64,000 nt of DNA, taken from Amoeboaphelidium occidentale. Its lineage: Eukaryota. A program made the translations under genes and the position numbers. Below, in pieces: positions 5,291 to 53,902 of the stretch; position 1 is the stretch's first letter; each line of letters opens with the position of its first letter. Location: the NCBI GenBank assembly GCA_023515795.1, contig JALGPX010000014.1, positions 1 to 64,000 of the forward strand, given 5' to 3'. Below the pieces are notes generated by a model. The model worked only from the letters and a program-made list of their open reading frames with translations, was not told the DNA's origin and did not search any database.

Positions 5291-8200
5291 TTATTGGAGT
5301 CTTTTGACGGTTTCATTGTAAATATCAAGTGCAAACTTTTCCAGAGGTCCAGCAACAGACTTATCTTGATCAAATCCTTCAAGTTGCTCCTTGAAATGAT
5401 CATTCCATAGTTTCGCGTTGAAGAACACAACTAATGAGTTCTTGGCTCTAGAGAACGCATCAAAAAGCTTTTCGGGTTTATCTGTAAACATTCCCACATC
5501 TTTTGTTCTAACAAGCGACACCAGAACATATTCAGATTCTCTTCCTAAGAAAGCATCAACTGTTCCACAAAAGTTTGGCACTCCAAATAGCGCTTGAAGG
5601 CCATCAGAAGAGCTGCATCGAGTTTTCAGAACATCTAGAAACCATTAGAATCTCCAATGAAACAGATTACCATTAATCAAGCTGGCTTGTCCTTGATAAG
5701 GTGTCAGTATTGATATATCTTTAGCGGGAACTCCATCAAGTCTCAAACGTTGATAGTAAGCTACAATGTATTCGGCTTCTGCAAGATTTTGGTAAAAGCC
5801 TTTTCTTGGTTCTGACTCTGAGATTTCTTGTCCAGAAAATTCACCACTAACATCAATTAGTTTTGCTACGCCTGATTTCTTTTCTTTTGCAGAAGTTTTC
5901 ATTGAAGTGTAATGGCTCGACATAACGGATCGCATTGCCTCTGCCGTAAATCGATGTGGCTCCAGAAGTTTAGTTGAGGGAACTCCAAGCCTCAATAACC
6001 TGTTGTAAAGACTAGACTTATTGGAATAAAATTCAGGACCTATNNNNNNNNNNNNNNNNNNNNCATTGCCTCTACCGTAAATCGATGTGGCTCCAGCAGT
6101 TTAGTTGAGGGAACTCCAAGCCTCAATAACCTGTTGTAAAGACTAGACTTATTGGAATAAAATTCAGGACCTATTCCTGCCATTACTGCTTTCCAATTCT
6201 TGACCAAAGAACCATCTCGAAGCAGAAGGGATAATGGTATGAAAGAGTTCAGTTCATCCAGCATATGGGCATCGTCAACTATAACAGTTGTAATTCCATT
6301 GATACCGCTCAATTCTNNNNNNNNNNNNNNNNNNNNNAGAACCATCTCGAAGCAGAAGGGATAATGGTACGAAAGAGTTCAGTTCATCCAGCATATGGGC
6401 ATCGTCAACTATAACAGTTGTAATTCCATTGATACCGCTCAATTCTTTCAAACGCATTAAACAATTTGTAGAAGTAACTGCGATTAACTTCATTTCAGTT
6501 CTCATCAAGTAATTGGCTCTTTCGTAGTTGGAGCTCAACAGATCCAGACACTTGAGCTGTTTAAGTTCAGTAAACAAGTTATTTAAATGAGACCAAGCCT
6601 TGTTAGTATCTTTTATCCCTAAAGCCTTGCTATAGTAATCTGTAAACGGAAAAGTGGAGGATTGACTCAATACCGTATCGTAAAAGTCGACGGCTGTGTA
6701 AGTGGACTCCCAAACGTCACCAACTGAATAGTTTAAAGTGGATACCATATCTTTGACCTGATTTAGCAGGACATCTCGCCTTTTTAAAAACGCTTTAACC
6801 CTATTCGGCTTCGAGTACTTGCTAAATTCATCCTCAGTGTGACCAATTCTCATAATGTACTCACTATCATCCAGTTTGTCCAAGATGATGTCACATGTAG
6901 AACCAGTCCTAGTGACCAAAAGAATTTTTCCTGCAGTATCTGACGCCAACAAGGAATTGATGTGTTCTGCCAAAACAAAGCTCTTCCCCGTTCCAGGAAA
7001 ACCATCCAACAATAACATACCTGTATTACCCAATAGATAATTCAAAGCCTCTTTTTGATCTTTCGAGAGCTTCTTTTTACTTTCTTTTAGCTTCGATGCC
7101 TTTTCATTCGAGTAAACTATTTCCTCAGGGTTTCCATAGCCCAAGATCATTTGACAAAGCTCATTGTTATCCAAAGCATTGTTGCGAACAATAGATTTCA
7201 CTGTGCTACTAACTTGCTTATAATTGTTCATACTAGGATTCAATTTCAAGACCAAATTATATCCTTCAAGCGTTCCTAACTCACTGGAGGCAACGCGAAG
7301 AACCAACTTGCTTGAATTTCCTCCATCAACTCTCATTTTCTCGCCAAGCAAGTATGGCTTTCCATGTTCATCTCTCACGAGATTTCCGGCACCCTCCTCC
7401 TGGACATAACCAACAAAACGAACACCTCTCACTTTTTCAATGCCATAATTAGTTCCACTGCTCTGATTAAAAGAGCTTTTTACAGATATCAAGTACAAAG
7501 TTTCTCCTTCTTCTAGTACTTCCCATTCTGCTCTTACAACATCTGAGAATCTAGACATGGATATACTAATGTCCAATTCTAATTCTTCACTGACCACAGA
7601 GTTTTCGTCGACAACATTTTTCATCGTAACAACATGATGGCTGGCGAATTTGACTTCGTAGTCCGATATTGGTAAAATATTTCTGGACCAACCATTAAAC
7701 TGAGTAAAATTCAATTTCTTTGCTTGTTCAGATAGAATGGGCGAGGGCTTCAGCTTTTTCAAAGATTCAGTCACAATCTGTTCCAACTTTGAAAAGTAAC
7801 TGCCAGCAAAACCACCAAAGTGCAACTTCAGATAATGTTTAAGAGATGCGAATTGGACAGGGTTGAATTCATAAGCATTCTTGAAAGAAAACAAATCTTT
7901 CTCATTTCCGTACAAAGTATCGTGTTCTTCATTGAAGTGAAAATCATACTTGTTGCTTAAGATTGTTAACAGTACTTCTTTGCTGTAATGCTCCTTATAA
8001 TCAGAACTCAGCAAACTTGTCCTTATTTGAAGCGCATCGCAAATATCTTCCAAAACGCTCAACTCAACCCTGTTCAATAAATGAATACTTTTAGATGCTT
8101 TCGAGATATTCAGAACACAAAACTCATCTCTAAGAACATTATTCTTAAACATAACCTTTTGTAAATCGAAAACTCGTTCATTCTTTTTTGTCAGATCGAA

Positions 8201-13364: not shown

Positions 13365-13933
13365 CTCAAGGTCACTATCACAAAAGCGTTGAAACAGGTC
13401 ATTAAACTGTTAAACTTCGATCTGAAATTTCTATTTCTTCTTAGGGATAATACATTAGAAACGTGGTTTTCTCTTTCTTGCAGTGTACTTCGTGTCTGGC
13501 TGTACGACGTCGCCTTTCTTTCTCCTGCTCTCCTTCTTTCTAAGAACCCACTGCCTATCTTTCACATTCTTCTTTTTTTTNAGGACAGTTCCTCGTCTAC
13601 AGATTCGTCTGGAACATGCATGTTGTTGGACATCTCAAGGTCACTATCACAAAAGCGTTGAAACAGGTCATTGGAGTCTGGGGAAACTTACGAAAAAGAA
13701 ACTTTATTAAATATATCACAGCGGGTCACTTTCGAAAATCAAATTNNNNNNNCATTAAACTGTTAAACTTCGATCTGAAATTTCTATTTCTTCTTAGGGA
13801 TAATACATTAGAAACGTGGTTTTCTCTTTCTTGCAGTGTACTTCGTGTCTGGCTGTACGACGTCGCCTTTCTTTCTCCTGCTCTCCTTCTTTCTAAGAAC
13901 CCACTGCCTATCTTTCACATTCTTCTTTTTTTT
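13313..13933. repeat. Duplicated GYP1 5' / BUD23 3' block around N at 13581 and 13746-13752
   Basis: 13313-13403 repeats at 13582-13672 and 13400-13580 repeats at 13753-13933; the first copy lacks about 80 bp. Confidence 0.85.
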
Positions 13934-17855: not shown

Positions 17856-19501
17856 ATGATTAGAATATTGCTAGCTTTTACAAGTGCAGCAAGCACTGTA
17901 ATGAACATACAGTCACTACCATGGTTCTATGCGGAAGCTTTCGAGTCCAATACGATCAAAGCTCTTCTAATTGTCGCTGTAGCCGTGTCAGTGTTTGAAG
18001 GCGTGGTCAGTTTCACAATCTTTGGGTTGCGATCGAGACTTGGAATTCCGGCTATTTTATTCTTGGCTATGTTGTACATCGTTCAAACTTTACTTAATTT
18101 GAGCGTTTGTTGGATATCGTGCAAGGACGAGTTCATTAATTCCGGGCTTAGAACCAAAATAATTATGGACCAAGCGATATCTGCTGGCGCATCGATAATT
18201 GCGACCATCCTACTGTTATTCTTGAGACCAATGGGAAGCTTCACTTCACAGTATGGCGATGGTGAACATAAAGAAGTTAGATCACAGTTTGGATTACTGA
18301 TTATTCTTGCTTCAATATACGTTTCCTTTGGCGGAATTCTGTTCAGTATTCTGGAAGGCTGGGATATTGACGAAGCTATATTTTTATGTTTTGCTTCACT
18401 TTGCACAATTGGTGCTTCAAATGTCCAGTTTGAGACGGACTTTGGGATGGCGGNNNNNNNNNNNNNNNNNNNGGCGGAATTCTGTTCAGTATTCTGGAAG
18501 GCTGGGATATTGACGAAGCGATATTTTTATGTTTTGCTTCACTTTGCACAATTGGTGCTTCAAATGTCCAGTTTGAGACGGACTTTGGGATGGCGGTATT
18601 TCCCGTTTACGCGATTTTTGGTTTGCTGCTGTTCGGCATGATAATAAGTTCGACAAGACTACTGATAATTGACTACTTATCCCAGCAGTTTTCTTTGAAA
18701 GCATACAAACTACTGAACTATTGGGCAATAGGAAGAGCTAATTCTTTGAATGGTTTAGTAAGCGAAGAGCAAGTGATGCTGTCCTTGCAAGAAAATTCAC
18801 GCGATTGTCAATTAACACAAGGCAATTCATCTTCTGTTTCAATAGTACCAACTCTTGAACCTGTTGAGGAAGAATCCAGAAGGCAGGAAGCTGTTAGTGA
18901 GTTTTCAGCATTACTGCCAATACCGGAAATTCCTCGTGAGAGAATCATGCCGGTTCAAGTTGACGCGATGAAACAAGGTGTTGAACCAATTACTATGCCT
19001 CCGTTGCAACCTCTTAGTTTCCGCCAGATACGCACCACACTGTCACATGCTTCTCTAAGAACACCTGCAACAGTTAAAGTTGCAACACCATTTCGCTTAC
19101 CATTACATACGATACAATCTGAAGTTGACCGTTTCAAGAATTCTTCATGCACCGCTACGCCTCGAGTACTGTACATTGAGCTAAGAAAAATGCTGGGAAA
19201 GTTTTTACTAGCCGGCTTAATTGCGCTATTATTTTACGTGTTGGTATTTTCTTTGGTCATATCTCGATTAGAGAGCTGGGACTTATCAGAGGGAATATTA
19301 TTCACGTTTAATTCCATAACAACAATTGGATCTGGTTCAGTGACATTAAAGTGTTTCTTGAGCAAGAATATTTTCATGGGCGGTATCACGACTGGTTTGG
19401 CATTGGTTGCATTCTGCGGGAGTTTGATGACTGAGATATTGTCTTCAGAGTGGCACATTCACGTGGAAGATGTTGCCATGACAAGCGATGAGCTGGAATA
19501 A
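17856..19501 (+). CDS. TOK-like two-pore-domain K+ channel homologue with degenerate filters; interrupted by N gap 18454-18472 and a duplicated block
   Basis: N-terminal TMs then two pore units LEGW..AIFLCFASLCTIGAS and LESW..GILFTFNSITTIGSG. Confidence 0.75.
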
Positions 19502-35600: not shown

Positions 35601-38600
35601 ACCTGCTACATTCTTTTGTTCCGAGCTATGAAGAGCGTAGTGCATCCATAGAATCGATTCTAGAAAAAGCTGTTAGAGGCTCGAATGGTGGTAACAATTC
35701 GATGAAAATTCACTCTTATCGAATTCCATCAATTGAAATGTTGCGCGAGATTATTTACAGCAATTACACGATTTTTGATGTGTTGACTCCTTTCTTCTTT
35801 CACAATAATTATTGGGTTCAGCTTGCAGCACTTGAGGCTTACATCAGACGTGCTTATAAGGATTACAATTTAAAGAATGTTCGACATCATATTTCTTCTG
35901 CTCCTTTCTTCGTCGAGTGGGATTTCAGTTTGGAAACAGTCACTGATGGGAATAATTCACCGTATAAAGAAAATCCGAGGAAAGGAATTATGGCGGCATT
36001 CAGATCATTGGAGGCTGTGAGAATGAGGTTATCAGAACTGTTGTCTATATTTGGAAAAAGGGAACCGCACGATGAGACTGTAAGATTGCTGAATCTTGCG
36101 ATTTTGGACGAGGAGGGTATATCGTCAAATGATTTTGCCGATTTGGCTAACACAGTTATTTCTGATTTTGCTGAAGAATTTATCAAGTTTGGGCTGCGCC
36201 GTATTACTTTCATTTTGGTTAAGCCAGCCGATAACTACCCTGCTTATTTTACCTACAAGCCAAAATTCTCTGCAGACAAACTTTGTTATGAATTGCCATT
36301 CACTGAAGATGTTAATATTCGTAATGTTGATCCTGCTCATAGCCATCAGTTGGAACTGGGAAGACTGTCCAATTTTAGAATTACCCCGGCTCTCAATGTA
36401 GATAGTCGAAGTATTCATGTCTATTATGCTGAATCTATCGAGGATCCTTCAGACAAGAGATTCTTTGTCAGATGCTTTGTGAGACCAATTAGGTTGCGAA
36501 ACGATGAAGATACAGAAATGGTCAGTCCTGCTACAATTGAATATCTCATTTCAGAGGGAGATCGTATACTGAGTGCTGCTCTAGATGCTCTTGAATTTGT
36601 TTTGGATAAGCACAAAGATGTTCAATGCAATCATCTTTTTGTTCATTTCTCGCCGCATTTTATAAATGTTAGACCGGAAACTGCAGATAAGGTTTTCCCT
36701 GGATTTTTGAGTAGACACGGTAGTAAGCTGTGGAAACTCAGAGTTACTGAGGGAGAGATCAAGATTTCTATCAAGCCAACTCCTGATGGTCCCGTTTTGC
36801 CGTTAAGGGTTTACATCAACAATTCTTCAGGATATTCTGCAAACATGGATATTTATCACGAAACCAAATGGGGATCCAAAAGCGCTGTTTTGACGCATAT
36901 CAAAGTTCCGGGATTCTTTGGCAAAGGCGATAAGAACGGTATGTTGGCTTCTTATTCCTACCCAAAAAGAACAGAAATCGAAATGAAAAGGAATCGGGCT
37001 CAAAGTCTTGGAACCTCATACGTCCACGACTTTCCGGACATCTTCAGACAAGCTTTATACATTTTGTGGAAAACAAATGGATTAATGGCTCCGCTATATG
37101 ATAGTTTGTTGACTGCGAAGGAGCTGGTTTTGGATCAGTCCAACAATGAATTGCGTCTCGTATCAAGAGATCCTGGATTGAATGATATTGGAATGGTTGG
37201 TTGGGTCCTTAACATGAAAACTCCTGATTATCCTGAAGGACGAGAAATTGTTGTGTTAGCTAACGATATCACTTTCCAAGTGGGATCTTTTGGACCAGTG
37301 GAGGATCTTTTCTTTGCTGAAGTTTCACAGTATGCTAGAGAAAAAGGTATTCCGCGCGTTTACCTTAGTGCAAACTCTGGTGCCAGGATCGGCCTGGCCG
37401 ATGAGTTGATGGACTTGATACAAGTTAAATGGAAAGACGAGACAAACAAAGAAAAGGGGTTTTATTACTTGTATTTGTCATTCGAAAACTACGAAGTCCT
37501 AAAAACGAAGTGCGATGGGGACATATCAAAAAGTGTGAAGATCGAACCAGTACTGAATGATGATAAGGAGATTTCGCATTACAAGATTTTAGATATTGTT
37601 GGCCTTAAACATGGGTTAGGTGTTGAAAACTTGCAGGGCTCTGGAATGATTGCAGGAGAAACTTCCTCCGCTTACAAGGATATATTCACCATCACAATGG
37701 TTACTGGGCGAAGCGTAGGCATTGGTGCTTACCTTGTAAGACTTGGCCAAAGGACTGTCCAGATTGAAGGGAATCCCATTGTTCTGACAGGTGCTTCTGC
37801 GTTGAACAAAGTCCTGGGAAGAGAAGTTTACACTTCCAATTTGCAACTTGGTGGAACTCAAATTATGTATCTAAATGGAGTATCGCATATTACTGCAAAT
37901 GATGATTTGTCGGGTATAGGGCAAGTTTTGAATTGGTTGACTTTCGTAAAAAGATCAAAAGATGCGCCAGGATTGCATTTGTTTCCGACAACTGATCCTG
38001 TTGATCGTTCTGTTGATTTCGTTCCACCTGAAGGTGCATATGATCCAAGACTGTTGCTTGACGCCTCGTTCGACGAAGATGGTGCAGCCGGATTATTCGA
38101 TAAAGGCAGCTTTGTGGAGACGATGAGCGGCTGGGCTAAATCAGTTGTTACTGGAAGAGCTAGATTAGGCGGCTTACCGGTTGGTGTTATTGTTGTTGAA
38201 ACTCGAGCCACAGATACTGTTATTCCGGCAGATCCTGCTAATATTGAATCACATCGTCAAGTGCTTGTGCAAGCAGGACAAGTTTGGTTTCCAAATTCTG
38301 CGTTCAAAACTGCTCAAGCGATAAGAGACTTTAACAATGGAGAGCAGTTACCATTATTCATTCTTGCTAATTGGAGAGGGTTCTCTGGAGGTATGATGGA
38401 TATGTTTAACGAAATACTGAAGTTCGGTGCTATGATTGTTGATGAATTGCGAGACTACAAGCAACCAGTCTTTGTTTACTTGCCTCCAAACGCCGAGCTT
38501 AGAGGTGGCGCATGGGTCGTCGTTGACCCCAAGATTAACGAAGACATGATGGAGATGTATGCTGATCCTAGTTCCAGAGGTGGTGTTTTAGAGCCAGAAG

Positions 38601-39215
38601 GTATCGTTGAGATTAAATGCAGAAGATCTCAAAAGTTGAAGCTCCTTCAAAGATGGGATTCTGAGTACGCAGAACTTAAACGCTTGCATACTTCAGACCC
38701 TGCTAACATGGAGGTGGAAAAGCGTATGGAAGAGCGTGAAAGAAAATTGTTGCCGATGGTTAGTCAAGTCTGTGTTGAGTTTGCTGAGCTTCATGATAAG
38801 CCGCATAGAATGAAAGCAAAAGGCGCCATAAGAGAAATCATTGAATGGGAAAAGTCTCGATCGTTTTTTCTATTGGAGATTAAAAAGCAGGCTTCTTGAA
38901 GAAGAAGTACGAAAGGTCTTGTCGAAGGAATCTTCAATACTTTCAACCAAGAAGCTGATTTCAAGACAAGAATGTACAAATTTACTGAAGACCATGCATA
39001 CTGCTGCAGGTAATGAGCCTATTGTATTTGAAAATGATCGTTTTGTTGCTCAATTCCTGGAGGACGAACTCAAAACCAAAACGCTAATCAATGCAAAAGC
39101 TAAACTTCTTCGTTCTGAATCTTTGGCCAATATGATAACATCATTATCCGCAGACGATAGCAAACTTCTACAAAAGATAGTTTTGAGTGGTCTTGATGAA
39201 AAGCTAGAGGAATAA
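32618..39215 (+). CDS. ACC1: Acetyl-CoA carboxylase (BC-BCCP-CT) with an apparent +1 frameshift at 38864-38869
   Basis: ANNGIAAVK, WAGWGHASENP, EVMKM biotin site, ANWRGFSGG; conserved FYWRL...EE continues in the next frame to TAA 39215. Confidence 0.95.
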
Positions 39216-39300
39216 ATAACTGGCCCTTCGCTACAGGATTAGTTCAAATAAAACCAAATCTTACTTAGAAGAGCGTTACACGAATCGCACGATATCTCGG

Positions 39301-39560
39301 CTACGCTGGCGGAGACTGCACAAGTAAGTATGCGACCATAATCACCTGTTTTTTACCTTTGTTTGCATTCAAATCCAAGAAAACGTGTCTGATATTTCGT
39401 GCAGCGTTAATGTCCCTGTTCCAAACAGTTGAGCAATCTAAATTGCAGATTTTAACCGCCAAAACTTTGTCTGTTTCAACTCATGTAAGCAGAATGAACA
39501 TAAATTTTAGGATTCTGATGGAGCCAGATATACCCCCTTTAAGAAAGCGCATTCGCACTC
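39301..39560 (-). pseudogene. Degenerate C-terminal fragment of a Fanzor/TnpB-family RNA-guided nuclease (transposon remnant)
   Basis: Minus-strand LCSFCLHELKQTKFW, then a 1-nt shift to AVKICNLDCSTVWNRDINAARNIRHVFLDLNANKGKK; zinc-ribbon plus RuvC-III motif; no in-frame ATG upstream of the motif. Confidence 0.75.
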
Positions 39561-39691
39561 CAGCTCGCAGCATGTAGACGCTTGAGCTGGAGCTCTGCGC
39601 GATTAATGGCAAACCCTAATTATCTTGAGCACGTCGATTACTTAGTCTCGGCCAATCTGCTGAGCTTTCAGAAGTCACTGATTCTTGACAA

Positions 39692-41470
39692 ATGTCTGAT
39701 ACTCAATTGACAAAACCTAGGCCGAAACTGATAACGGATCTTCCGGTTGAGATACTCTTCTTGATATTCGAGTCTTTGCACGGAAATGTACAAGCATACG
39801 CGTCGTTATTGTGTTCAAACAAGCAGGTAAGGATGATCCTAAAGTCATGGGATCCTGCCTGGCGCTTAGAAAAGATCTTTTTCAAGGATAGTAATTCGAG
39901 CAAGACGCAATCTACTCATAGTTCATATGGCGAATTGGACGTCCTTCGGCTTTCAGATATATTTGCCCCAGCTGGTGTAGCCTCGCGACCTCGAGACGAT
40001 ATTGAAGTCTCAATAATCCAAGACGAGGTGGAACCTCCTTCCTTGAATGAAAGGCATTTGATGAATGACTTTGATTATCGAGAGTGGAGAGGGTTTGGAA
40101 GAAAATGGCGAAGGTTACTTGAAACATCAAGAGGTGCGTGTTTTGTAAGGGGTCAAGACTTGATTATCGGTTCCACTAGCTCAACACAAATGAGCGGCGG
40201 CCAAGTTTTTGGCTCTTTCGGGACGAATATCATCACGGCGTGGAATATCGACTCAGGTCAGATTGTGAAGAGGTTTCAAGGTCACGAAGGAAATGTTATC
40301 ACTTTACAAGTAAGTAAGAACATGCTGGTATCATCAGGGGCGGATAAATCTGTGATTATATGGGACCGCCACGATGGAAAACAGATTCTAAGAATGAATT
40401 TCGACTCGGCAATAAGGACAATCAAGTTCGATCCTGTTCAAGCAGTTTGTGGAGATTCGCAGGGAAACATTCACGTGCGAGATACTGTAACTGGACGCTG
40501 CATGGATAAAGTTCCTAATATTTGCCACAAGTCTGATATTACACACATTGTTTACGATCACAAGTTTGTCTGCTCAGTATCTTCTGATAGAGTCTTGCAG
40601 GTTTACGACAGAATGCAACAAAAGATTTCATTTTACTACACTTCCTTCTTATCAATTATCACCACTGTTACAATGAGCGGAGACATCGTTGTTGTTGGTA
40701 CTTGGGACGGCGGCATTTATGCTTTCTTATTGTCTCGTCAATATGATGGCGCAATTACTGATTATGATAAATCTGGATTGCAACAGCGTGGCATGGGAAG
40801 TGAAATCAAAATTATATCTGATGGAACTGGGTGCCATACTGAACGCGTAAACTGCATACAGGTTTTGCCCAAAAAGTCATTAGCCTACTTTACTAAGGAT
40901 GATGCATTAATTGATGACCTAAAGAATTATCCACCTTTTGTATCAGGAAGTAATGATGCTACAGTTGGTGTTTGGGCTCCAAGAAAAGACTCCAAAGAAC
41001 TCAATATTATTTATCAATGCTTGTACAAGCTTAGTTTCGATTCTACCGTTCTTTCAATGGAAATCGTTCCGAAGTTTGACCTTGATACAATTATTATCTC
41101 AGCTGCGTGTTTAGATGGAAAGCTATCTCATTGGCATTTATTACATACACGTGAAGGATATGGGCATGATGAAACGGATCCACGAGCTAAATATGTCAGA
41201 ATGCTAAAACAAGATCATCGTTCAACAACTATTAAAATTGGGAGCCAGACCACGTTTAATAGCACTTTCATGCCATTTATGATTTATCAAGAGTTCGTTC
41301 AACTGTTATTGGATAGAGATCCTGAAGATTTTGTTGCCGACGTGGGCTTGGAACGAAATGTTGAAAATGCTTTACAAAGGTCACACGTAAACGTTGAATT
41401 AGATGGAGACGATCCTGAAATAACTGCTGATGATCTAGACACATTCTTTAACGCCATGGAGTTTCCATAA
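39692..41470 (+). CDS. F-box/WD40 protein
   Basis: LPVEILFLIFESL F-box; GHEGNV...SSGADKSVIIWD and further WD repeats. Confidence 0.85.
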   Translation: MSDTQLTKPRPKLITDLPVEILFLIFESLHGNVQAYASLLCSNKQVRMILKSWDPAWRLEKIFFKDSNSSKTQSTHSSYGELDVLRLSDIFAPAGVASRPRDDIEVSIIQDEVEPPSLNERHLMNDFDYREWRGFGRKWRRLLETSRGACFVRGQDLIIGSTSSTQMSGGQVFGSFGTNIITAWNIDSGQIVKRFQGHEGNVITLQVSKNMLVSSGADKSVIIWDRHDGKQILRMNFDSAIRTIKFDPVQAVCGDSQGNIHVRDTVTGRCMDKVPNICHKSDITHIVYDHKFVCSVSSDRVLQVYDRMQQKISFYYTSFLSIITTVTMSGDIVVVGTWDGGIYAFLLSRQYDGAITDYDKSGLQQRGMGSEIKIISDGTGCHTERVNCIQVLPKKSLAYFTKDDALIDDLKNYPPFVSGSNDATVGVWAPRKDSKELNIIYQCLYKLSFDSTVLSMEIVPKFDLDTIIISAACLDGKLSHWHLLHTREGYGHDETDPRAKYVRMLKQDHRSTTIKIGSQTTFNSTFMPFMIYQEFVQLLLDRDPEDFVADVGLERNVENALQRSHVNVELDGDDPEITADDLDTFFNAMEFP

Positions 41471-51296: not shown

Positions 51297-52519
51297 CTAT
51301 TGAAATATAATCTGTTCATCTTCATCAATTTTTTCGTGTTCCTGAGCAGATGCCGGCGGATTGTTGTACAGAAAGTTATTTGGTGTCAACGGTCCTAGAT
51401 TCTTAAGGATTTGCTTGGTTGCGATCGCAATAATCTTGTCTTCAACTTGCCAAGACTGATATGAAATATTGTCAGAAAGAACAATTGCCGCATAACCAGC
51501 TACGTGAGGACTTGCTTGAGAAGTTCCGGTCCAAGTCATTGTAGCGGTGTCTCCCGAAGAATGAGCGCCTGTTATGCTGACACCAGGAGCAAATATGTCG
51601 ATGCATTTTCCAAAAGCTCCATATCTTGAGTCGCTCCAATCGGTGGCGCCGACCGTGATAACATCTGGTAATCCTGAAGGATAAGAATGACATGCATCCA
51701 CGTTAAAATTGTTTCCAGCAGCAGCTACCATAGTAAAGCCTTTCTTTCTTGCAGCTTGGATAGCTGTTTTAAGCGCTTCACTTTGATACATGCCCCAGCT
51801 GAAATTCATCACTGATGGTCTGTTTCTTTGCTGTTTCTTTCCCATGGCCCATTGTATTCCTGCAATAGCATCGCTTTCGGCTATGAAGCCGTCATTATCA
51901 ATCACTCGAACAGATATAACTTGAGCTTTCTTTGCAACGCCATACTTGGTTCCCGCAGCAATACTTGCAACAGATGTTCCGTGCCCATTCTTAGGAACTC
52001 CAGTTTCGCCAGTGAAAGCACTACCGAGAATAACTCTTCCAGTAAGATCGGCATGGGTAACTCTGACACCGCTGTCGAGTATGTAAATGTCAGCATTCTT
52101 TCCAGCATCATCATCATAATAGTAATCAAGATGTCTAAGAGACTTCTGACATACTCTTGCCAAGTTCCAAGGTGCACCTTTCTGGACTGCGTATTGTTCT
52201 CCGAACTTCTCATACTCAGCATACTCAATTTCAGGCATAGATCTAAGATCGCTCAATGCAACATCGTCTGGAACGGCAAGAGCGAATCCATTAAGGCCTT
52301 CCATTTCATATGTGTACTTTACTTCTGAGCTCGGATATTTGTTCATGAAACCGGCCAGAAGGTCCGATGAGAAGGATGTTACTAAAGCATGATGATCTCG
52401 ACCTAGAACTTACCTGAGACGCCCTCTCTGAGTTTAATGATGACTCTATTGCTTTTCTTTTGAACACAAAGTGCAATGCTGATGAGGAATGTTAGAATTA
52501 TCCACTTGAAACTGTTCAT
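51297..52519 (-). CDS. Secreted S8 subtilisin (proteinase K type) with I9 prodomain; 32-nt intron 52382-52413
   Basis: Signal peptide MNSFKWIILTFL; ILDSG, HGT, AAAGN, GTSQASPHVAG. Confidence 0.9.
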
Positions 52520-52634
52520 GATCTTTGGACCTCTTGAGGAAAAGCTTCTCAAACAACGTCGTAAGTCGCAGAATTTGGCACTTTCTCAAAATTCACATAA
52601 ATCTAATAATGCTGCATTGAAATTTCTTCTATTT

Positions 52635-53902
52635 TTATTGATTAAATCCACCTTCTTGTAGTAACATTCTTGGTTCCTCATCTTCTCCGTATTCCATATC
52701 ATCATCTACTTCATCATCTGTAAGACTCTTTTGTGGAAAATAATACAACATTCTGTTTGAAGAGCGACTTCCCAAATCTCTGAGTGTATTTTTTGTAGCA
52801 TATCGATCCATATCACGCTCAACCTCCCATGGTTCATACCATTTTTTCCTTGACAAGATAACTGCAGCAACACCAGCGACATGTGGGGCAGCCATACTTG
52901 TGCCAGTCATAGTTGTAGTACTTGTATCCCCAGATGATGAAGCTGAAGTGATGCTGACACCTGGTGCGAAGATATCAATGCATTTTCCGTATGAACCATA
53001 ACGTTGATCACGAAGATCAACTGCGCCTACTGTAATAGCTTCATAAAGCCCCGATGGATAAGTCCTGCATGCATCTACATTTGCATTTCCTGCTGCTGCA
53101 ACGACGACAAAATTTTCCCTTCTTGCAGCTTGAATTGCCCTCTTCAAACTAGAAGACTGATACATGCCCCAACTAAGATTCATCACAGACTGACGCTTTC
53201 TCTTCCTTTTGTTGCGTATAGACCAATTTATTCCAGCCAAGGCATCACTTTCTGCAATGAAACCATAATTGTCGATAACCCTAACGGATATAATTGTAGC
53301 TTTCTTTGCAACACCATACTTGTATCCAGCAGCAATACCAGCAACATGTGTTCCATGAGTATTTCGGGGAGATCCATGTTCTCCTGTATATGAGCCTCCG
53401 TTGATAACCCTACGATTCAAATCTCTATGAGTTTTTCGAACCCCACTATCAAGAATGTAAATGTCTGTGTTCCTTCCGGCATCGGAATCATAGTAATAAT
53501 CGAGATGTCTCAGATCACGTTGGCTTATTCTTGCTAAGTTCCATGGCGCATTCCTTTGTACTGAGTATTGTTCCCCGAATCGTTCAAACTCTGCATATTC
53601 GATCTCTGGAACGGACTGAAGATCTCTCAGGGCCTGGTCCGAAGGCACGGCGATCGCATAACCATTCAAACCTTCCATCTCATACGAGTGTACAACTTCT
53701 GCGCTTGGGTACTTATTCATAAAGCCTGAAAGGAAATCCGTTGAAAAGGAAGCCACTACAAGGTTATCACCAATATGTGTGACTTACTTGATACATCATC
53801 TCTAAGCCTGACGATGACTCTGTTGCTTGTCCGGTTGGCATTTAGGGCGAATGAGACGATCTCGCACGAAGCTACAACCAGAAATGTTCTTATGAGTCTC
53901 AT
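52635..53902 (-). CDS. Secreted S8 subtilisin, tandem paralogue; 32-nt intron 53756-53787
   Basis: Signal peptide MRLIRTFLVVASC; ILDSG, HGTHVAG, AAAGN, GTSMAAPHVAG. Confidence 0.92.

Follow-up and report, generated by a model that had tools for sequence, protein, structure and literature searches.

A nuclease-dead, multi-copy Fanzor1 mini-element with filled and empty alleles behind ACC1 in Amoeboaphelidium occidentale

The enzymes described as partners of Fanzor1 are of the DDE, Crypton and Helitron kinds (Yoon 2023, PMC10711439). In Spizellomyces punctatus, the Fanzor1 element Spu-1 (SpuFz1) is accompanied by 134 ghost loci and 23 partial loci, and RNAs from the ghost loci have been proposed to let Fanzor maintain transposons in trans (Saito et al., PMC10432273). 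MCi-5 of Mucor circinelloides and CMe-1A of Cyanidioschyzon merolae are Fanzor1 elements of unknown class that lack terminal inverted repeats (TIRs), as does the element described here; MCi-5 is flanked by ATTTAT, and CMe-1A has about 150 copies (PMC3627910).

The window analysed here is the whole 64,000-nucleotide stretch at the start of contig JALGPX010000014.1 (assembly GCA_023515795.1) of Amoeboaphelidium occidentale. Aphelids parasitise algae. Whether Fanzors had already been described from this lineage was a question left by a first-pass annotation of the window, and two supplements answer it: supplementary file 3 of Saito 2023 (PMC10432273) contains 38 rows for Amoeboaphelidium, of which 26 are A. 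occidentale and 21 of those are labelled FZ1, and Table S2 of Yoon 2023 (PMC10711439) has 112 Amoeboaphelidium rows, among them KAI3657174.1. Neither KAI3657174 nor KAI3658458 appears in Saito's supplementary file 3, and the two available supplements of Jiang 2023 (PMC10530073) gave no match. Full-text literature, a search space that has Repbase and subscription journals outside it, yielded nothing that joins Fanzor with Amoeboaphelidium or aphelids, or A. occidentale with transposable elements; papers that pair Amoeboaphelidium with transposons bore titles on other subjects. No description of the mini-element was found in the accessible Fanzor literature, including PMC3627910, PMC10432273, PMC10711439, PMC10530073, PMC10288648 and PMC11423790. 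The nuclease family is already known; what may be new is the ghost-like miniature Fanzor1 element. There is very little doubt that this element, which sits 4 bp behind the ACC1 stop, is a nuclease-dead, multi-copy, polymorphic Fanzor1 derivative. Its features are:

39216..39601, minus strand: whole mini-element, about 386 bp, bounded by a depth step, piles of loose ends and the joints of empty sites; ends uncertain by a few bases
39602..39606, minus strand: TTAAT, a TTWAT motif before the left end, placed by left-junction loose ends; predicted target motif or TAM
39547..39600, minus strand: left-end hairpin with a perfect 9-bp inverted repeat (39584-39592 / 39558-39566), from folds compared with shuffles
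39512..39601, minus strand: left-end region without Fanzor homology (HMM and tblastn negative), containing the WSAN/FLKGG readings
39462..39503, minus strand: Fanzor1 remnant, first Cys pair (LCSFCLHELKQTKF); by tblastn, 16 of 18 residues identical to P0047 residues 259-276
39458..39459, minus strand: one-base frameshift common to a minority subfamily, from depth with the extra base against all depth
39351..39457, minus strand: Fanzor1 remnant, second Cys pair and RuvC-III WNRD motif, from the HMM match
39294..39350, minus strand: 57-bp subfamily-specific stretch, which replaces 24 bp coding the usual C-terminus (RPLAFSR...), from a contig joint and loose ends
39216..39293, minus strand: right end, predicted omegaRNA scaffold (74-78 nt), ending CCAG-TTAT, in position and size like the 75-nt SpuFz1 scaffold
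39201..39215, minus strand: host flank and would-be 15-nt guide, lying antisense to the stop of ACC1 and the codons before it; the guide role is modelled on Saito 2023

The coding remnant lies in two frames of the minus strand. Positions 39480-39304 translate as VETDKVLAVKICNLDCSTVWNRDINAARNIRHVFLDLNANKGKK..., with the W codon at 39421-39423, and positions 39506-39441, in the next frame over, as NLCSFCLHELKQTKFW; the first-pass annotation had read both peptides, and both lie where it placed them. Together they give CxxC...CxxxC-x3-WNRD across the frameshift, the C4 zinc finger followed by RD that is the Fanzor/TnpB motif of Bao and Jurka, and the pattern RDxN[AG][AS]xN[IML] has a single occurrence in the six-frame translation of the window. 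Of 2441 window segments scored with an HMM built from 18 relatives, with the same-family protein P0047 left out, the first of these two reached 53.2 bits (E=2.3e-15) and the second 11.9 bits (E=0.0076). The profile check proposed for the peptide gave a match to Pfam PF07282 below cut-off (E=8.2e-4, 19.9 bits against 26.3) and, for the relatives' HMM, scores clearly above 10 shuffled windows, whose best were 2.3-6.3 bits. With Fanzor1 as the nearest solved structures, this upholds the reading of the motifs as a Fanzor zinc ribbon and RuvC-III. An internally deleted Fanzor transposon had also been proposed, and fittingly the homology begins at about 39511, after the RuvC-II glutamate, and related copies are found elsewhere. 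The window copy has no ORF with the D-E-D triad of an active Fanzor nuclease; everything through the RuvC-II glutamate is lost, and it is therefore no nuclease.

Relatives were found by phmmer with a 59-aa segment, which returned 30 of 1.84 billion proteins at E<=0.001; a word-based protein search with the 59-aa piece gave 5 candidates, none passing. The best phmmer match, P0016, is A. occidentale KAI3658458.1, and within its 90% cluster lies P0047, A. occidentale KAI3657174.1, a protein of 325 aa with LDPG, LVNEHNTSKLC, four cysteines, WNRD and the unusual tail of the window copy. P0047 has the two marks of the Fanzor family, the DPG of RuvC-I (D95-P-G) and an alternative RuvC-II glutamate before TSxxC (E253), and also D289. 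The remnant segment of 55 residues is 85% identical to it; the window read-through, with X at the break, shows 88% identity to P0047 over 51 residues and 84-88% to A. occidentale proteins, and joins P0016, P0046 and P0047 with SH-aLRT 99 in a quick tree of 42 rows. Against PDB, a profile of 19 relatives matched SpuFz1 at 4.1e-19, PpFz1 at 7.6e-13, GtFz1 at 3.2e-10 and TnpB at 0.014, with Fanzor2 not listed, and P0047 alone matched weakly (SpuFz1, E=0.016). The predicted structure of P0047 (pLDDT 86.9) placed Fanzor1 chains at Foldseek ranks 1-7 and Fanzor2 at rank 17. Taken together, the PDB profile, the Foldseek ranks and the tree grouping make the element's nuclease a Fanzor1 rather than a Fanzor2 or TnpB; the relatives P0053, P0054, P0067 and P0071 are labelled FZ1 in Saito's table (PMC10432273).

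That intact copies may exist elsewhere in the genome is borne out in part, by the 325-aa P0047 with its D-E-D triad. A full-length member of its family (about 650-750 aa) was not found in the protein searches, which counts against the guide-RNA model set out below. Among the matches, 24 reach at least 570 aa, seven of them A. occidentale models of other families, and none exceeds 50% identity to P0047; one of another family, the 749-aa A. occidentale protein P0067, has DPG, E and RD intact. Nine further matches of 178-569 aa have at most 53% identity. Exact DNA patterns of the element had 0 matches in viral contigs and 0 in metagenome contigs, and a search for loci with P0047 left 0 of 31 candidates in metagenomes and 0 of 4 in viral contigs.

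Several observations concern these proteins in their own right. The A. occidentale Fanzor models P0053, P0054, P0057 and P0064 have blocks that recur within the protein, which points to tandem fragments or faulty assembly; the locus tags of P0047 and P0064 are neighbours, on contigs of equal length. In P0073 (1356 aa), a Fanzor C-terminus is joined to XPG_N and XPG_I domains. A 147-kb viral contig has two Fanzor-like C-terminal matches (L001 2875-3117; L002 3001-3045), the first of which is an 80-aa ORF with DEYRS-C4-WNRD.

Other copies of the element were sought in the assembled contigs of eight sequencing runs (X1, X2, X3, X4, X6, X9, X15 and X16) of the 17 found; X15 and X16 contain only small shares of the search words. 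In X1 the summed contig depth rises from about 106-191 on either side to about 3,200-62,000 between 39217 and 39639, and X2, X3, X4 and X6 behave alike. Contig depth is not copy number, but single contigs are telling: one of 78 letters in X3 has a depth of 268, where unique DNA has 10. Loose ends (24 of 147 rows for X1-X4, 16 of 61 for X6, X9, X15 and X16) pile up before 39213-39217 and behind 39603/39607, and the flanks agree mostly at about 0.5, so that many different flanks must be present. Left-junction contigs number at least 19 in X1, 13 in X2 and 12 in X3 among the matches listed, and in five runs the junctions are confined to one or two positions. Read on the minus strand, a left junction consists of TTTAT or TTAAT followed by CGCGC, and the right end is GGGCCAG-TTAT-T; TTWAT occupies 0.27% of window positions. 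The check for shared ends suggested by the first-pass annotation thus turned up junction piles at both ends with many flanks. Its picture of a decayed, internally deleted transposon understates the locus, which is no isolated relic: it belongs to a multi-copy family, retains its two ends and is polymorphic between filled and empty states. Many copies, shared ends, different flanks and an empty site are together what a non-autonomous transposon presents. No second copy was found within the window, and no contig among the matches listed spans the whole element; X1 flank contigs reach 26-30 letters into it from both sides, with a bridging threshold of 31.

The same contigs account for the frameshift. 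One more base at 39458, as had been supposed in joining the two frames, is present in other copies in all eight runs, and P0016 and P0047 read in frame across the window's break. The depth with the extra base over all depth is 3263/4270 in X1, 298/606 in X2, 239/249 in X3, 275/400 in X4, 149/252 in X6, 6.6/8.6 in X9, 3.9/8.7 in X15 and 2.7/2.7 in X16, with the base missing from a quarter to a half of depth in X1, X2, X4 and X6. Frameshifted copies are thus multiple in those four runs, so that spread does not require the reading frame. An intron was considered as the cause of the shift and rejected: GT/GC-AG pairs are present, yet other copies simply have the extra base. The C-terminal tail varies as well. 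One X6 contig links 39293 to 39351 via 24 other letters, loose ends lie before 39351 in X1-X4, and P0047 has the tail of the window type, whereas P0016 and P0046 have the usual one.

Neither end resembles the other. There are no TIRs, no inverted pair links the two ends, the longest word common to both is 5 nt, and at most 10 of 20 terminal bases match. The left end folds well, with z=-3.49 for the RNA of 39512-39603 (0 of 200 shuffles as stable) and z=-2.54 for the DNA of 39540-39610 (2 of 200), these z-scores being uncorrected and drawn from ten end stretches and one other that were picked after inspecting the sequence. In longer copies (X2, X3, X15, X16) the alignment breaks off at 39503 and gives way to sequence for EHNT[SC]K, which places the deletion joint near 39511/39512, directly after the RuvC-II glutamate. 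Loose ends of 167-223 letters extend into these longer copies, and sequence coding the RuvC-II glutamate occurs, among the matches listed, in at least four of the eight runs, one an oligo-dT library. The WSAN/FLKGGISGSIR readings had been taken for a relic of the region before RuvC-II, a view that must be given up: neither HMM, Pfam nor tblastn matches anything upstream of 39503, and, with the joint where it is, the stretch is the element's left end.

How such an element moves and persists can be pictured in several ways. On balance, and with modest confidence, we favor a non-autonomous Fanzor1 mini-transposon of about 386 bp that is moved in trans by an HUH-type transposase and whose guide RNA directs an intact Fanzor1 to the element's own empty site. 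The transposase would insert the mini-element 3' of TTWAT; transcription through the right end would then yield a scaffold of about 75 nt followed by about 15 nt of flank. A putative full-length Fanzor of the P0047 family could load this RNA and cut alleles that have TTTAT directly before the flank, and repair from the filled allele would keep or restore the insertion. An HUH-type enzyme is probable given that hairpins are present and TIRs absent; no transposase was seen, the scans of metagenome and viral contigs having given no copy of the element. The nuclease tail has probably been kept because it adjoins the right end. A function in trans, as in ghost loci, gains support from S. punctatus, whose ghost RNAs work with SpuFz1 in trans (PMC10432273).

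The right end likely still carries the predicted guide RNA. It would form a 7-bp stem, GCUCUUC (39274-39268) with GAAGGGC (39229-39223), within an outer GUAAC/GUUAU helix, and this stem survives both a point change and an interior deletion, in support of the prediction: a variant at 39272 in X6 and X9 turns a U-G pair into C-G, and one X9 contig lacks the interior of the right end and keeps both stem arms. The ACC1 C-terminus ends at the TAA of 39213-39215, which puts the would-be guide antisense to the final codons of that gene. The RNA fold has z=-2.17 for 39220-39282 and -1.25 for 39216-39293 (23 of 200 shuffles), the DNA folds are no better than shuffles (z +0.37 and +0.60), and Rfam has nothing for the element's ends, its two matches (E 6.9 and 8.6) being at chance level. 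The weak overall fold suits a possible, though doubtful, alternative, a passive miniature element whose right end is kept only for the transposase and gives no working guide RNA; an HUH transposase would bind the terminal hairpin anyway (PMC10288648). The oligo-dT RNA run X15, whose library may include DNA, has a long-form contig that codes the glutamate, along with a mini-element belonging to a different locus. None of its contigs lies over 39230-39405, which favors the passive element as far as contigs, which cannot show absence, can do so. The lack of a full-length family nuclease points the same way, and two traits of the window copy also count against the guide-RNA model, namely the changed 57-bp stretch that adjoins the predicted scaffold and private bases, such as that at 39431, which are absent from all X1 depth. 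A passive element leaves unexplained why the right end matches the SpuFz1 scaffold in size and position; moreover, the triad-intact P0047 and glutamate-bearing contigs exist, one of the latter in a poly(A) library, and the published ghost RNAs are functional (PMC10432273).

Natural alleles without the element bear on the mobilisation step. Empty sites occur in three of the eight runs (X2, X3 and X6), in which contigs join 39218/39219 to 39646 through 36-37 other letters. On the minus strand, the empty allele has TTTAT immediately before the window's right flank in X2 and X3 and TGTAT in X6, and both neighbouring genes are retained. A 13-bp core is all that the left flank of the window copy (39604-39645) has in common with the empty alleles, the coding flanks differing by about 3-4%; the insertion point is thus not fixed, and the direction may be insertion or precise loss. 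For this step alone, it is rather unlikely that a DDE-type or unclassified transposase generated TTAT as a target-site duplication of 4-5 bp, although MCi-5 of Mucor, with its ATTTAT duplications and no TIRs, is a precedent (PMC3627910). The single empty site is fitted equally by such a duplication and by a fixed right end after TTWAT, for it has one TTAT in X2 and X3, and copies of the TTTAT type would have TTAT on two sides. The window copy, with TAAT on the left and TTAT on the right, leans to a fixed right end after TTWAT, and left junctions of the TAAT type make up 7 of 19 in X1, 7 of 13 in X2 and 6 of 12 in X3 among the matches listed. The lack of TIRs also argues against duplication, as, weakly, do the right junctions listed, which mostly keep TTATT, where an aligner may pass one mismatch.

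It is improbable that the element spreads without any transposase, by Fanzor cutting next to TTWAT and break repair pasting in a copy. No transposase was seen, and the short unrelated left-flank sequence resembles a repair scar; the ends are nevertheless sharp in five runs, where repair copying would be expected to leave them ragged, and the left end is a strong hairpin. A host-gene exon, a chance motif or an assembly artefact is hardly credible, for although the assembly has scaffolding gaps with duplicated flanks and no listed contig spans the element, the HMM value of 2.3e-15 stands against at most 6.3 bits in shuffles, identity to P0047 is 88%, X1 flank contigs enter the element by 26-30 letters from both sides, and alleles without the element keep both neighbours, an outcome that largely disposes of the host-exon reading raised in the first-pass annotation.

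The neighbouring genes have peculiarities of their own. A run of six T at 38864-38869 shifts the ACC1 frame about 115 codons before its end; X2, X3 and X4 have one T fewer, and X1 has no such difference. The shifted frame runs to 39215 and matches the C-terminus of yeast ACC (E=0.01). An X1 contig of about 38345-39241, which covers the 3' end of ACC1 and just reaches into the element, has a depth of 191 compared to about 100 for long unique contigs and may represent two copies. One X15 RNA contig of the ACC1 3' end (39211-39224) stops 5 bases inside the element and 8 bases past AATAAA, a faint hint that the element may hold an ACC1 poly(A) site. The downstream gene (39692-41470) has WD40 matches, and no F-box family is among the 25 listed of 29 Pfam families. 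Elsewhere in the window, N gaps flanked by 90-180 bp of duplicated sequence, typical scaffolding artefacts, lie at 6044-6063, 6317-6337, 13581, 13746-13752 and 18454-18472; a tandem subtilase gene pair (51297-53783) has 67.5% DNA identity; and the genes include Copper-fist, CFA20, presenilin, FERM-RasGEF and formin, with long ORFs in the standard code. Galdieria, suggested as host by the hot-spring and biofilm runs, was rejected in view of the Copper-fist, CFA20, presenilin and FERM-RasGEF genes and of nearest named proteins that belong to aphelids.

The significance of the locus is twofold. For the role of Fanzor in its hosts, it is a test case in which the TAM (TTWAT), scaffold and guide are predicted and filled and empty alleles occur naturally. 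The locus is also a pointer to a TIR-less, unclassified Fanzor1 carrier in a lineage with many Fanzor families.

Compared to its closest relative, P0047, the window copy belongs to one family with it and shares its unusual C-terminal tail; DPG, the alternative glutamate and WNRD are all preserved in the 325 aa of P0047, whereas only the last part survives in the window copy, and Table S2 (PMC10711439) lists P0047 as a protein only. The likeness to Spu-1 lies in the Fanzor1 nuclease, the numerous short loci that have two ends but lack an intact gene, the conserved motif before the left end and a right end of about 75 nt before a variable flank. Spu-1 differs in having 30-nt inverted repeats, a CATA TAM and ghosts of about 550 nt without an ORF. 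The window element has hairpin ends and TTWAT, retains the zinc-finger/RuvC-III tail and has a right-end RNA that is predicted; lacking TIRs, it is not a ghost of the Spu-1 type. MCi-5 and CMe-1A are longer: CMe-1A is about 3 kb, and MCi-5 can carry a Harbinger-type transposase; the accessible part of their description does not mention hairpin ends or empty sites (PMC3627910).

The Helitron2-borne Fanzor1 elements CRe-1/2/3 of Chlamydomonas are likewise non-autonomous, with a hairpin that includes the 5' terminus, a T-rich target and internal deletions (PMC3627910). In contrast, the window element has no clear asymmetric TIR pair, its left ends are sharp and not 5'-truncated, and at the one locus with an empty allele there is no 7-19-bp duplication. 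Helitron1 elements are defined by 5'-TC...CTRR-3' at A^T and Helitron2 elements by asymmetric TIRs with two hairpins. A Helitron reading of the ends, A|TC...CCAG|T, is possible; CCAG is not CTRR, and the X2/X3 empty site misfits insertion at A^T. IS200/IS605 elements with TnpB insert 3' of a short T-rich motif, have hairpins near both ends and no TIR, and carry their guide RNA at the right end, where one is predicted in the window element. The nuclease here is a Fanzor1 (DPG, alternative glutamate) and not a canonical TnpB, and no Y1 TnpA was found. TTWAT on the left, TTAT on the right and the hairpins fit the IS200/IS605 pattern, and a 4-bp duplication fits the one empty site equally. The fullest form of this comparison is an unlikely one: the element would be a eukaryotic Fanzor1 transposon of IS200/IS605-like build, without inverted repeats, with hairpin ends and inserted right after TTWAT, whose dozens of miniature copies might serve as a bank of guide RNAs, each targeting its own empty site. 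At this locus the target would be the final codons of the essential ACC1, and filled and empty alleles would coexist in nature with what may be target-escaped ones (TGTAT).
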